The notes beneath the pieces are model-generated. The model saw only the letters and a program-made list of their open reading frames with translations. It ran no database searches and was not told the origin of the DNA. Of a stretch of DNA of 64,000 nt, positions 15,601 through 29,217 are shown one piece after another (within the stretch, counting starts at the first letter, position 1; each line of letters begins with the position of its first letter). The stretch lies in the IMG/VR virus record IMGVR_UViG_3300037067_012588, one strand, 5' to 3'. Source of the stretch: a virus. Taxonomy: Duplodnaviria; Caudoviricetes. The position numbers and the translations under genes were made by a program.

Positions 15601-18600
15601 GTAGGTCGTATCAGGAGTTGTTTCTGTTATCCCAGTTGTCTTCTTGATGAACGCACGGAACACGACATAAGAACCCATCAACCCTTGCGCAAGCCACAAA
15701 CATTCTCCATCTTCGTAAACAAAACGAAGCTCAAGATATTGCTTGGTCGACCAAACATGGATATCGTTCAGATAATACTTATAAATATATTCCGACTGAA
15801 GGTCATAACACGCATCTTCCTTCTTTGAGAACACATTCTGCTTCTGAACGAAATGCCAGTTTGACATATCAAGGATAGCCTGAAGCGGGTCGCTTGGGCA
15901 CTGTTTACACTGTGCCGATGAACTATCCGTATATGATGCCGTGCAACTTGCCTCCTCTATGGTTGGTATATTCGGCGCACGAAGTTGAACAGAGCTTGTG
16001 CAGTCAGCCTCATTCATGTAATAAGGACGAATTTCAGCCATCTCATTTGGAGCAACAACATCCGAAACCCAAATACATCCGTTTGAATAATCCTGCCATC
16101 TATAACTGAATCGAATATCTGCCGTTGAACGGGCAAAATACCTGACATTGTTCCAAACAAACTGGACAATGCTATCACCTGTAACTTGGTTGCAAATCAA
16201 ATCACGGCTCGGCGAAATAACAAGGTCTGAACGCAGAACAATTAACCACAGACAGTCTTCCGAAGGAGGCTCTTCGATACAAGTATTACATGACGACTGA
16301 GATGAACTTGACGATGAGAATCTGTCTGCGCAATATTCAGTATCAACATATGAACGGTCTTCAAAGATGTAATCTTGAGGATAATAATCATACCTGTTCC
16401 CAAATACCTGAACCGATCCAGCACGAATATATCCATCAACCTTGGAATAAAGTCCAATGTCTGAAAGCTTTGCCGTTCCAAAGCAGGCATCAATAACAGA
16501 CTTGGACTCAGCAATGAATCCAGATTCCTTGTTCGCATTAGCAACAGCGGACAACGCTTTGATAGTTGATCCAATCTCAGCTCTAAATCCATAACGACCA
16601 TTGTATCCAGCATTTGCACCACAAACATCCAACGATGAATATCTCGATGCAACAAACCCATCCAAATCATTGAACGAAGATGTCACCCATTGGGCAACAA
16701 CAGAACCTCCACTGATAGCCCTAATACCTGTCGTCCAACGATCCCATATGGTCTTTCCTCCAACCTCTATGCTCGAATTCTTGGATGACGTCAACCCATA
16801 AGCATCCCCATTGAATCCATCTTCCCTATTCAAAACAAATCGAATACCATCGACATACGCAAGGGTATGCCCATTTGTGATTTCAATACCATCACAGTTA
16901 GCAAATCGAACAACAACCTTATAAGACCAAGGCATTGACCTCAAGAATCCTTTCGCCCATGATGAGTTGCTTGAGCGACTTGACGATGAACTTGACGACC
17001 GTGAGCGGCTGCTTGAACTTGAGCTGAATGAATGACTCGAAGATGACGATGAACTGCTCGACGAGTTATACGATGAACTTGAGCTGCTCGGGCTGCTCGA
17101 TGAGAAGCTCGAACTGCTGCTCGATGACATACTTTCCGACCAACTCGAAGAAGAACTGGACGAAAGACTGTGCGATGAACTTGAGGAACTTGAACTGCTT
17201 GACCAGTCTTGTGAATAAGCTGGGTGTTCGTTGATTGTGCCATTCCTCTGATATGTCCCAATTGCAGCCGTTGTTCCAGCGGCGGCAACCGAGAAGAAAT
17301 CATTTCCCGAATCATGCACGAAAACTGGAGGAGGAAATGCTCCATCTGGCTCAACAACTTCCCATGTTGATGCGAGAACACCATCCAAATCGGCACCCTG
17401 ATACGTCGTCCGATAATACTTTGCTCCGATATCTGGCCCGCCACCGATATACCAAACGGCAGAATTGTCGAACCACATACCTGCACCACCCGTATTCAAC
17501 GCCGAAGACTTACTGGACGAAGAAGACGAATCCGAAGAACTTGAGCTACTGCTTTCACTGAAACTGCTCGAACTGGACGAACTCAAACTATCACTAAAGC
17601 TCGATGATGACGAACTCAAAGAACTCGACGAAGATGAGCTATCGCTAAAGCTTTCCGATGATGAACTTGAACTCCAATCGCTGTTTGACGATGAAGAAGA
17701 GCTATAGCTGTCCGACCACGACGAGCTTGACGAATAACTAAGACTGCTTGACGACGAGCTAAACGAACTGCTTGATTTCGAAAAGCTGGAAGAACTGCTT
17801 GATACCGAAAAACTTGAACTGCTCGACGATGGGCTGCTTGAGCTAAACGAGCTTGAACTCGATGAACCATTAACAGTCATGAATGAAGGAGCTGGGGCAA
17901 TACCACTCGGCAAACGATTCCACCCTGTTGTCGGTGGAGTATTTCCCGTACTCTGAACACCATAGATAGCTCCAGTTACAGCCTTCCCAAGAGTATCACT
18001 AATGATCCACCAATAGGCAGAAGCCTTCTGGTAATATAGGAACAATCCATCTTGGTTCTTGTAATAGAACCTGTCATTAAACTCTCCAGCAAAGAAATAT
18101 GTTCCTGCAGCACTTACTGTTCCAGGGCTATTTGTCACCAAATAAGCTGGTGTTGAAATTTTTCCTGAGCTACTCGATGACGAACTGAACGAACTTGAGC
18201 TACTCGACGACAAGCTACTTGACGACAAGCTGCTTGAACTCTCTGAAGATGAACTGAATGAAATATCGCTGCTGCTCGAAGAAGAGCTTTCAGAAGACCA
18301 AGATGAAGAAGAGCTGCTTGACAAACTGAAAGACGAAGAAGAACTTGAACTCTTTGAATTAGAACTCGACGAACTTGAGCTTATCGATCGATACGAACTC
18401 GAAGAGCTGCTGAAGCTCGAACTACTCCAGCTTGATGAGCTTGAGCTTGATGAAGCATATGTTCTAACGACAACATTGTTGAATTTGGCTTGGCAAACCA
18501 AGAGCGAATTATATTCACACAAGAATCCAAGTTTGCCATTTTCAGGCAGCCACTCTCCATCACGACCCGTAACAGATACCTCGCATACCAACATCCATTC

Positions 18601-27600: not shown

Positions 27601-29217
27601 TGTCTCAGACCAAGTGTCTCCATGTTTCGACTTACTGAAAATATAGGCTGCTCCTCGGTTATCCTCGGTATATGCTCCAGCAATAATTCTTGCCGCATCC
27701 ATACCAACAGAAGCACCGAAGTTTCCTCCCGTACCGTCATGGGTTATCAGCTTCGCAATCTGATACCAATCATCACCATATGTCCCAAACGAACGACGCA
27801 TGACATAGACAGCCCCAGCATCTTGATGCCCAGGCTGATCCTCACCATATGCCCCGACAACAAAGTAATCGCCAAAGGACGCCAATGCTGCACCAAAGTA
27901 ATCTCCAGAAGACTCATCAGAAGAATACAACTTCTTCTCAAGCGGAACAAATGACGATGACGATGAACTAAAGCTGCTTGAGCTAAAGCTATGTGAGGAT
28001 GATGACGAACTAAAACTCGAACTCGAAGATGAGGATACACTCTGAGAACTACTTGATGACGATAAGCTGTCGCTCGACGATGACGAACTTGAAAGTGATT
28101 CTGAATAGTTCGAAGAACTCGAACTGCTATTGCTATATGAATCACTCGATGAACTTGACGATGAAGAATCTGGAGTAAACTGAACGTACTCAGCACGGGT
28201 ACGCACGGTCCCAGTTTGGTCATCATAAGCCGCAGCAACTTGAAAATAATTCGTATCATTCACAAAATATGTCAGTGAGGCTTCGTCTCCAGAACGCTGA
28301 ATGTTTGCCGAATAATCAACAACTGCATCGAAATTTCCAATCTGAGTCCATGTCAACTCAGCAGATGGAGCTGTATCAATTCTTGGGGCAAGCATTCCAC
28401 GCAAGGCTTGTATTCTGAGCTTGCAGTCAACAACATCGATAGACTCTGCGTTCTCTTCATTGACTTTGACAAAATTCGGAGACCATTCAAACGGATCACA
28501 GAAAGAATAGAGCCGATGAAATACTCCCCAAGTCGAAGAAGAAGAACTTGATGAAGAAAAACTATCAGATGAAGACGATGAAAGGCTTATCGAATTGAAC
28601 GATGAGCTTGAAGAGCTAAAAGATGGGTGCATTGAGTCTGGCAAATCGCCATACAGGTAAATTCGTGTTTGGTCCCATGTCGCATGACCCTGACCTTTTG
28701 GAACAAACTCAGACCTTCTGACGCCGTAGACTCCAAAGTTTACTGTCTCACCCATAATCTTAAGGAACGACTCTGCAGGAAACTCCGATGTCTGATTTCC
28801 ATCCAGCGCAATAAAGATTTCTCCAGAATCCTCATCTTGTTCGACAATGAAAGCGTCAAAATTGATACCGTCATTCTCATTACCAAGAATCTGAATCTGA
28901 GAACCAAACGGATGGTCAACGTTCAGTTTTTCCGTGAAACGATATTCACCATCAGCGAGAAGAATTGTAACCATCTTCCCAAGTCCAACCGTTCTGTCTT
29001 TCAACCATTCAAAAGCACGATGCGGCGAAGCCCACGGGTTTTCCCGTGAGCCATCGCCATTGACATCATCACCATTTGGACTGATATGCAACAGAAGGTC
29101 GTCTTCAATGTTCCGAAGCGACGGCAGGAACGTAGCTGTTCCATTTTGCCCTGCATATACCCCGAACTGGTCGGTATTTTCTCCGGAGCTAATCCGTTTT
29201 ACATTTAGCCTAGCCAT
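12688..29217 (-). CDS. Giant (~5509 aa) poly-serine multidomain virion/adhesin-like protein: split beta-helix, FG-GAP propellers, LamG/ConA domains, GDX repeats, Pro-rich linker, Cys-rich C-terminus
   Basis: Uninterrupted 16.5-kb ORF. ATG at 29217 follows GAGGG, and MARLNVKRI parallels MANLKAKWI of the 2850-aa paralog. FG.SV...VGA...GAVY repeats; LamG DFTIDFW...WxHIA...MDEIRI. Confidence 0.85.
14563..14838 (-). repeat. (Gly-Asp-X)n coding repeat; shorter copies at ~15260-15360 and ~15430-15482
   Basis: Translation [22 protein letters not shown]...; 9-nt periodicity with synonymous variation. Confidence 0.9.
16960..28623 (-). repeat. Region of multiple poly-Ser coding tracts interspersed with folded domains in the giant protein
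   Basis: Tracts such as [17 protein letters not shown] use mixed TCN/AGY codons. Confidence 0.9.

Follow-up and report, generated by a model that had tools for sequence, protein, structure and literature searches.

A giant phage protein in which interrupted domains appear to carry further domains on polyserine arms

The 64,000-nucleotide (nt) viral sequence IMGVR_UViG_3300037067_012588 (Duplodnaviria; Caudoviricetes), the whole of which is called the window in the following, contains on its minus strand a gene for a giant protein of more than 5,500 amino acids (aa). An earlier note, made from the sequence alone, had proposed that domains of this protein are interrupted and completed by distant pieces of the chain, giving a branched structure nested three levels deep, and our analysis supports this core proposal at all three levels. 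The reading that we favor, with a probability of roughly two in three, is that one polypeptide contains three nested host domains, which are cut at surface loops by cargo flanked by poly-Ser and which reunite. The hosts would be a tailspike-type right-handed beta-helix (level 1), a ConA-like beta-sandwich (level 2) and a seven-blade FG-GAP propeller (level 3). The nested arrangement is well supported, by homology at level 1 and by computation at levels 2 and 3. At each level, the pieces of the host align with successive segments of uninterrupted homologs, and all of the cargo falls into the gap between them; at level 2, this applies to the first two of the three sandwich pieces (B1 and B2) only.

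Layout of the giant gene and its polyserine tracts

The analysis concerns two Ser-rich giants that are encoded in the window.

12688..29217 (-), the giant open reading frame, uninterrupted; 5,509 aa from the ATG at 29217, 5,517 aa from the GTG at 29241
33903..42455 (-), a paralog of 2,850 aa with an uninterrupted beta-helix (41253-42455), a propeller with a bare poly-Ser loop (39621-41030), an intact ConA-like domain (38928-39533) and Laminin_G_3 domains

The frame of the giant is open for 16.5 kb without a stop codon. The ATG at 29217 is likely to be the true start rather than the GTG at 29241, since GAGG, a ribosome-binding site, is located 6 nt upstream of this ATG, and since a metagenomic relative, P0005, begins at the matching MARLNV, corresponding to the ATG eight codons downstream of the GTG. 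Both giants were split wherever six out of ten residues were Ser, and the remainder was taken as non-Ser islands. The giant contains 17 Ser-rich tracts of 16-185 aa each (1,295 of its 5,517 residues) and about 18 islands, and the paralog contains 11 such tracts; all of these are long Ser-dominated stretches between folded modules, as is typical of polyserine linkers. Ser accounts for 71% of the linker residues when the two giants are pooled. All islands of the giant comprise at least 91 aa, except for the sandwich pieces B2 (57 aa) and B3 (a core of 13 aa). The coordinates and peptides quoted in the earlier note were all found to be correct on rechecking, and its statement that poly-Ser is present at every junction was borne out by the 17 tracts.

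At the outer level, the two parts of the beta-helix, A1 and A2, enclose 3,888 aa and are followed by a C-terminal part of 1,197 aa. Inside the beta-helix lies the sandwich piece B1, followed by the N-terminal half of the propeller (PropN), two islands (ins1 and ins2), the C-terminal half of the propeller (PropC) and a Laminin_G_3 domain. The second sandwich piece, B2, comes next, then one island with a single Laminin_G_3 domain and another with two, and finally the third piece, B3. Between B3 and A2, the chain continues with a second propeller, an intact ConA-like copy (I1) and two small islands.

Three interrupted host domains

The beta-helix is represented in the giant by the following two segments.

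28624..29217 (-), A1, N-terminal part of the beta-helix (cap, first rungs and side excursion), aa 9-206; found by BLAST and profile
16330..16959 (-), A2, the rungs of the beta-helix that follow the break, aa 4095-4304; found by BLAST and profile, with a weak Pfam Beta_helix match

The break occurs after a 12-residue peptide ending at aa 206 (nt 28624), and the domain resumes with WAKGFLRS at aa 4095 (nt 16959). The insert of 3,888 aa agrees with the approximately 3,890 aa given in the earlier note, and the split is backed by homology to uninterrupted relatives. In BLAST comparisons, aa 9-179 of the giant (A1) matched aa 1-169 of the paralog with an E value of 1e-21, and aa 4098-4252 (A2) matched aa 192-365 with an E value of 1e-9 and 27% identity, colinear with A1. 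An HMMER search with aa 1-401 of the paralog returned 391 relatives (E <= 0.001), many of which are unbroken over residues 33-365. The position of the break in the giant corresponds to the RESGGEE loop of the paralog, which is 16-19 residues long and free of inserts in all 32 aligned relatives. A profile was built from 32 database proteins, none of them from the window, and was applied with Z set to 1e6. It produced a single match to the paralog (2.2e-67) and two complementary matches to the giant, one of aa 29-166 on model positions 77-214 (7e-28) and one of aa ~4097-4302 on model positions ~248-478 (2e-19).

AlphaFold2, given aa 1-401 of the paralog and 32 aligned relatives, predicted one right-handed beta-helix with a predicted local distance difference test score (pLDDT) of 83.3 and a predicted template modeling score (pTM) of 0.81; a single continuous fold was modeled for the paralog only. 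The sole internal stretch of this model with a pLDDT below 50 comprises residues 185-188, which is where the giant is cut. Over residues 38-401, the model resembles single-domain lyases and epimerases, including 5mqp_A (Z 24.6, root-mean-square deviation (rmsd) 2.7, 270 residues aligned), Pel9A 1ru4 (Z 22.7, rmsd 2.4, 245 aligned) and the A-module of AlgE4 (Z 22.3), and it also resembles phage tail fibers and depolymerases. Because the 32 relatives are uninterrupted and the profile matches are complementary, the sequence comparisons support the view that A1 and A2 form one domain, which is continuous everywhere else and holds the 3,888-aa insert here. A shuffling of two independent domains was considered as an origin of the A1 and A2 arrangement and was rejected, given that uninterrupted relatives and solved structures of single domains span the break.

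The sandwich was traced in three pieces, and an intact copy of it is present further downstream in the same protein.

28168..28533 (-), B1, first of the three ConA-like sandwich pieces, aa 237-358; aligns with residues 12-100 of the intact copy
23971..24177 (-), B2, second of the ConA-like sandwich pieces, aa 1689-1757; aligns with residues 142-195 of the intact copy
20845..20907 (-), B3, putative closing strand with a core of 13 residues; predicted contacts with B2
18454..19110 (-), I1, intact ConA-like sandwich, paralog of B, aa 3378-3596; look-alikes GH43_C2/DUF1349

The earlier note would have counted a failure of the joined fragments to align with their intact paralogs as a refutation; B1 and B2, once joined, did align with I1 in a pairwise comparison (E 3e-8). 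When compared with a profile built from the two intact copies, B1 scored 14.2 bits (model positions 65-108) and B2 scored 8.0 bits (model positions 150-205), and each piece exceeded all 300 of its own shuffles. B1 (237-358), B2 (1689-1757) and B3 (2774-2803) were then folded with ESMFold2 as separate chains, which gave an interface score (ipSAE) of 0.89 for B2 as compared to 0.22 for the best control; the mark used for this score, which 51 of 78 solved complexes but also 2 of 108 mismatched pairs attain, was calibrated on single-chain pairs and is only rough for three chains. Three runs shared at least 90% of their contacts, the partner pLDDT was at least 77, and 241 contacts were predicted, with residues 2783-2793 of B3 touching B2. 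When B1 was replaced by an unrelated protein, the pLDDT of B2 dropped to 49. This result indicates that the pieces resemble parts of one sandwich, rather than proving that they assemble. The three-piece sandwich described in the earlier note is accordingly upheld for B1 and B2, by the colinear match and the three-chain fold, but not in sequence for B3, which is indicated by predicted contacts and a motif resemblance.

No Pfam match was obtained for I1, B1 and B2 at E <= 0.1, nor for the ConA-like copy of the paralog at E <= 1, and a sequence search of the PDB with I1 gave chance-level matches only. The nearest look-alikes of I1 in a language-model comparison are GH43_C2/DUF1349 clusters, with scores of 0.95-0.96. 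Since there is no Pfam match and the similarity is to language-model look-alikes, the domain is called ConA-like by resemblance and is not filed as a member of GH43_C2/DUF1349, which serve as a lead.

The innermost host is the first of two FG-GAP_2 propellers of the giant.

27463..27939 (-), PropN, FG-GAP_2 blades 1-2 with the first three strands of blade 3, aa 435-593; Pfam PF14312 6.8e-36, 122.7 bits
26554..27276 (-), ins1, beta-rich island of 241 aa in the propeller gap; no Pfam, PHROG or NCBIfam match
26149..26469 (-), ins2, island of 107 aa in the propeller gap; no Pfam, PHROG or NCBIfam match
25285..25977 (-), PropC, the rest of blade 3 (its last strand) with blades 4-7, aa 1089-1319; Pfam PF14312 3.3e-31, 107.7 bits
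19198..20682 (-), second FG-GAP_2 propeller, 3 + 4 blades around a bare poly-Ser loop of 132 aa; Pfam 97 and 101 bits

All four propeller matches lie above the PF14312 cut-off of 23 bits. The first propeller is split between a 10-residue peptide (nt 27463) and an 11-residue peptide (nt 25977), and the gap of 495 aa holds the islands of 241 and 107 aa; for ins1, language-model look-alikes (DUF6645 and a sialidase-like carbohydrate-binding module) provide leads only. The break was placed by parsing of the FG motifs, because the blades are alike and a local seven-blade profile matches out of register. Seven FG-GAP_2 repeats were counted in each of the three propellers of the two proteins, three before and four after the poly-Ser tract. 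The breaks (27463/25977, 20188/19791 and 40584/40307) all fall in repeat 3, in three different inter-strand loops: strands 2 and 3 flank the break in the paralog, strands 3 and 4 flank it in the giant's first propeller, and in its second the break follows strand 4. Cargo is present in the first propeller of the giant and in neither of the other two. The varied positions suggest either independent insertions or a sliding of the tether within one permissive region.

The earlier note had regarded the poly-Ser tracts as permissive sites of both insertion and recombination. The first role is favored because the tether occurs in three different loops of blade 3 in three paralogous propellers. For a role of the tracts as homologous recombination sites, which was considered and rejected, the DNA offers no support, their Ser codons being mixed and the longest exact repeat within 30 kb measuring 33 nt.

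Sixty-six uninterrupted bacterial seven-blade propellers could be aligned to both halves of aa 435-1319 of the giant, leaving the 495-aa gap empty; trimmed single propellers were used for this alignment, and multi-propeller proteins, whose extra blades fell on the inserts, were discarded. In an AlphaFold2 model of the propeller in its native context, both halves have a pLDDT of mostly 85-98. Both halves could be superposed jointly, as a single body, on integrin alpha chains (Z 37-40, 341-352 residues aligned), among them 9t3y_A (Z 39.9, rmsd 3.0, 345 aligned, model range 1..885) and 3v4v_C (Z 39.7, rmsd 3.3, 351 aligned). The models thus support a closure of the halves into a single seven-blade ring, and with it the split at 27463/25977 with two islands in the gap that the earlier note had described. 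In a set of 80 bacterial and archaeal loci, FG-GAP_2 arrays mostly comprise 7 or 14 blades, a grouping that provides a clean counting rule for propellers in long adhesins.

Proposed architecture, alternatives and precedents

In the architecture that we propose, the beta-helix would enclose the 3,888 aa that include the three-piece sandwich, the first gap of the sandwich would enclose the propeller, and the propeller would enclose two domains. The separated host pieces would reunite after synthesis, and the Ser tethers of 28-185 aa would remove the usual need for the ends of a cargo domain to lie close together. The outcome would be a compact core from which some fifteen lectin-type modules (Laminin_G_3, ConA-like and FG-GAP) dangle. 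With host domains opened in this way at three nested levels, the chain probably takes the form of a branched bouquet of sugar-binding modules and not of a string of beads.

Several points weigh against this architecture. The structural evidence consists entirely of predictions, in which the cargo islands ins1 and ins2 were modeled at low confidence (pLDDT <50), and the ESMFold2 result may reflect a memory of ConA-like folds. B3 lacks support in sequence, as 97 of 300 shuffles score equally high against the two-copy profile. A beta-helix is a solenoid, in which a short N-terminal portion and the rungs after it could each be stable separately, and it might tolerate such a separation better than the sandwich and propeller folds. 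Moreover, P0005 is a single short relative (a cluster of one member) that displays the first junction only, and no capsid or tail hallmark gene was identified within the 64-kb window.

With 28 Ser tracts across the two giants, the nested order could conceivably be an assembly artefact, produced by reads that were misjoined across similar Ser-coding tracts of several genes. We consider this highly improbable. The tracts are encoded by six Ser codons in mixed order, the longest exact DNA repeat across 12688-42455 is 33 nt (none reaches 40 nt), Tandem Repeats Finder detected few and short arrays within the Ser tracts, and one frame remains open throughout. Furthermore, the order A1, B1, P1, P2, B2, B3, A2 (P1 and P2 being the propeller halves) is one of only 10 properly nested orders of depth three among 210 possible interleavings, which would rarely be expected from random joins. 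The first junction was also found again in P0005, a protein of 296 aa that is 71% identical to the giant; it was retrieved in the HMMER search with paralog aa 1-401 and stems from an independent JGI metagenome contig. Its order is the start of the beta-helix, a 29-residue poly-Ser tract, equal in length to that of the giant, and the first sandwich piece B1. The absence of long repeats, the matching junction and the proper nesting together make a misassembly unlikely as far as sequence can tell. Searches for relatives of the giant among GenBank phages (DNA or protein), IMG/VR and metagenome contigs gave no match, and word-based protein searches with its C-terminal part and with aa 3917-4420 yielded collagen hits and one weak hit only, a low return probably due to poly-Ser words that swamped the search.

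The same relative bears on the idea that the split pieces are recombination debris, in which case the host domains would be dead and only the cargo would fold, as ordinary beads on a string. The missing sequence signal of B3, the weak matches of B1 and B2 to the intact copies (14 and 8 bits) and the mere 27% identity of A2 to the paralog are in line with such decay. In the diverged P0005, however, A1 and B1 are both 71% identical to the giant, an equal level on either side of the junction, and A1 and A2 of the giant retain a strong family signal (7e-28 and 2e-19). No residue is missing from the propeller halves in comparison with the 66 bacterial propellers, both halves are modeled mostly with high confidence, and the interface predicted between B1 and B2 is large and confident. 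In addition, an unpaired half blade or half sandwich would expose its core. An explanation by debris is therefore improbable in our judgment.

A further possibility is that the pieces complement one another between chains, A1 of one molecule pairing with A2 of another, to form a domain-swapped oligomer or a mesh on the virion. Tailspike beta-helices are usually trimeric, and the C-terminal Gly-X-Y runs of the giant suggest a trimer; pieces separated by as much as 3,888 aa would need to await their partner for minutes during translation, and the three-chain sandwich fold, which was obtained with separate chains, fits pairing between molecules equally well. On the other hand, the tethers are long enough for closure within one chain, the AlphaFold model closes the propeller in a single chain, and the propeller of the paralog, with its bare poly-Ser loop, gives no sign that swapping is needed. 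We regard complementation between chains as unlikely and favor reunion of the three hosts within one polypeptide.

A broader and rather doubtful extension is that poly-Ser-flanked cassettes constitute a general plug-in system of this phage lineage, in which split hosts would reassemble late, possibly between chains, and build a glycosylated lectin mesh around the virion. Any surface loop could then accept an arbitrarily large array of domains, since two long tethers would abolish the geometric constraint. If true, nature would already offer an example of unlimited domain insertion, and of domains that fold although minutes separate the synthesis of their two halves. The nested architecture itself, if confirmed, raises the question of how a half-domain stays soluble, unfolded but competent, while thousands of residues are synthesized, and whether the halves reunite in cis or in trans. 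It also raises the question of whether long flexible tethers generally allow loops to take up large cargo, a capacity that protein engineering could exploit, and it would introduce a phage surface structure of a new type, with many lectins in a branched bouquet.

The earlier note knew of no described phage protein with this architecture, and our text searches of the literature likewise found no phage precedent for it; nested insertion as such, however, is precedented in RNA polymerase beta' and in integrin alpha. The Si3 inserts of the former are repeats of one small fold. According to the passages covered here of a survey of domain insertions, about a fifth of multidomain proteins contain an inserted domain, nesting reaches six levels in cyanobacterial RNA polymerase beta' (Si3), and cases of the type A1-B1-C-B2-A2 occur in ECOD; the size of an insert consistently stays below that of its host, and nesting to such depth is rare (PMC13114784). 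The giant shares with RNA polymerase beta' Si3 and the ECOD cases the hierarchical insertion of domains into domains of one chain. It differs from the insertions in these passages by three unrelated host folds, by an insert about ten times the size of its host (3,888 aa and some fifteen domains within a domain of ~400 aa) and by a long low-complexity tether at every junction (PMC13114784). These features, and its presence in a phage, set the giant apart as an extreme form of a known principle rather than a new category.

Integrin alpha chains with an alpha-I domain also have a seven-blade FG-GAP propeller that is interrupted in a loop by a foreign domain, and alphaM, alphaX and alphaL are among the top structural matches of our propeller model (Z 38-40, rmsd ~3.0-3.2, 341-346 residues aligned). 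In these integrins, a single vWA domain on short linkers separates blade 2 from blade 3. In contrast, the insert of the giant lies inside blade 3 (repeat 3), between strands 3 and 4, and consists of two islands on poly-Ser tethers of 28-66 aa, neither of which has a vWA or other Pfam match; it resembles the alpha-I insertions in how it works but does not belong to them. Unlike in integrin, the propeller is itself the cargo of another split domain.

The beta-helix domain has the fold of the tailspikes and depolymerases of P22, Sf6, CBA120 and Klebsiella phages, with which it shares the N-terminal SP-x-G-x-D...PW motif. Known tailspike helices carry at most small excursions, such as the dorsal fin of P22, and we know of no tailspike helix with an insert of 3,888 aa. 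Polyserine linkers join modules end to end in carbohydrate depolymerases of the Cellvibrionaceae, namely of Saccharophagus degradans, Cellvibrio japonicus and Teredinibacter turnerae (PMC2386152, PMC2699552). In these enzymes, as in the giant, long poly-Ser separates carbohydrate-active or carbohydrate-binding modules, whereas its use as both arms of an insertion within a domain is not described in those two papers (PMC2386152, PMC2699552). A link of the phage to the Cellvibrionaceae lineage is no more than a lead.

Further domains, neighboring genes and possible function

The remaining parts of the giant and the genes around it are as follows.

24262..24858 (-), Laminin_G_3 domain, cargo between B1 and B2, aa 1462-1660; Pfam PF13385 3.3e-13
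20992..23430 (-), cargo between B2 and B3, an island of 337 aa with one Laminin_G_3 domain followed by an island with two; Pfam 1.4e-12 and 2.2e-36
17218..18150 (-), two small islands (91 and 92 aa) with paralogs among the islands of the 2,850-aa protein; BLAST 2.6e-5 and 8e-23
12691..16281 (-), C-terminal 1,197 aa with Cys-rich parts, two acidic Gly-Asp-X collagen-like runs and a Pro-rich stretch; Pfam Collagen 1.7e-15
29318-33414 (-), two Kelch proteins of 652 and 706 aa with two Kelch propellers each, between the two giants
47388-49541 (-), GT1-family glycosyltransferase, PHROG 3408 (5e-97), near both Ser-rich giants
59774-61828 (-), caspase-family peptidase (PF00656) carrying an intein with an HNH endonuclease, a further gene of the window

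The collagen-like part scored 56.9 bits against PF01391 (cut-off 27.2) and is also matched by PHROG tail-fiber families. Its runs at 14491-14805 and 15270-15318 (-) consist almost only of Gly-Asp-Ser/Ala/Thr triplets, are very acidic and are followed by a stretch rich in Pro and Glu/Asp/Thr. The Laminin_G_3 islands match PHROGs of large virion and baseplate proteins, and no match was found in NCBIfam, Pfam or PHROGs for ins1, ins2, the two small islands and the intact ConA-like copies.

The neighbors of the giants comprise the two double-Kelch proteins, three collagen-like proteins and the GT1 glycosyltransferase, and the domain types of the giant are those of glycan-binding adhesins. Because of these domain types and neighbors, we infer that the protein is a surface fiber or decoration of the virion of a large phage, which would offer many weak binding sites for polysaccharides of the host envelope or matrix. 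Jumbo phages are reported to have Laminin G3 and ConA-fold lectins on their fibers (PMC7824862). Their lectin-rich virion proteins (PHROG 701, 1469 and 18802; PMC7824862) resemble the giant in being large and in having multiple Laminin_G_3 domains, but the matches of these PHROGs cover single Laminin_G_3 domains only, and nothing was found on nested or split domains or on poly-Ser tethers in those proteins. It can be speculated that the collagen-like runs at the C-terminus mediate trimerization and that the Ser tethers are O-glycosylated, for example by the adjacent GT1 glycosyltransferase.

Finally, aa 1334-1975 of the paralog (36531-38456 (-)) contain four paralogous islands of 60-76 aa, each with an Asp-box-like D-G-G-x-T-W motif and each held on its own poly-Ser tethers, with a Laminin_G_3 domain between the second and the third. 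The four islands match one another in BLAST with E values of ~2e-8 to 5e-3, and three of them match Pfam BNR with E values of 0.014-0.09, below the cut-off for that family. These islands may be the individually tethered blades of one propeller, which would make it a fourth split domain.

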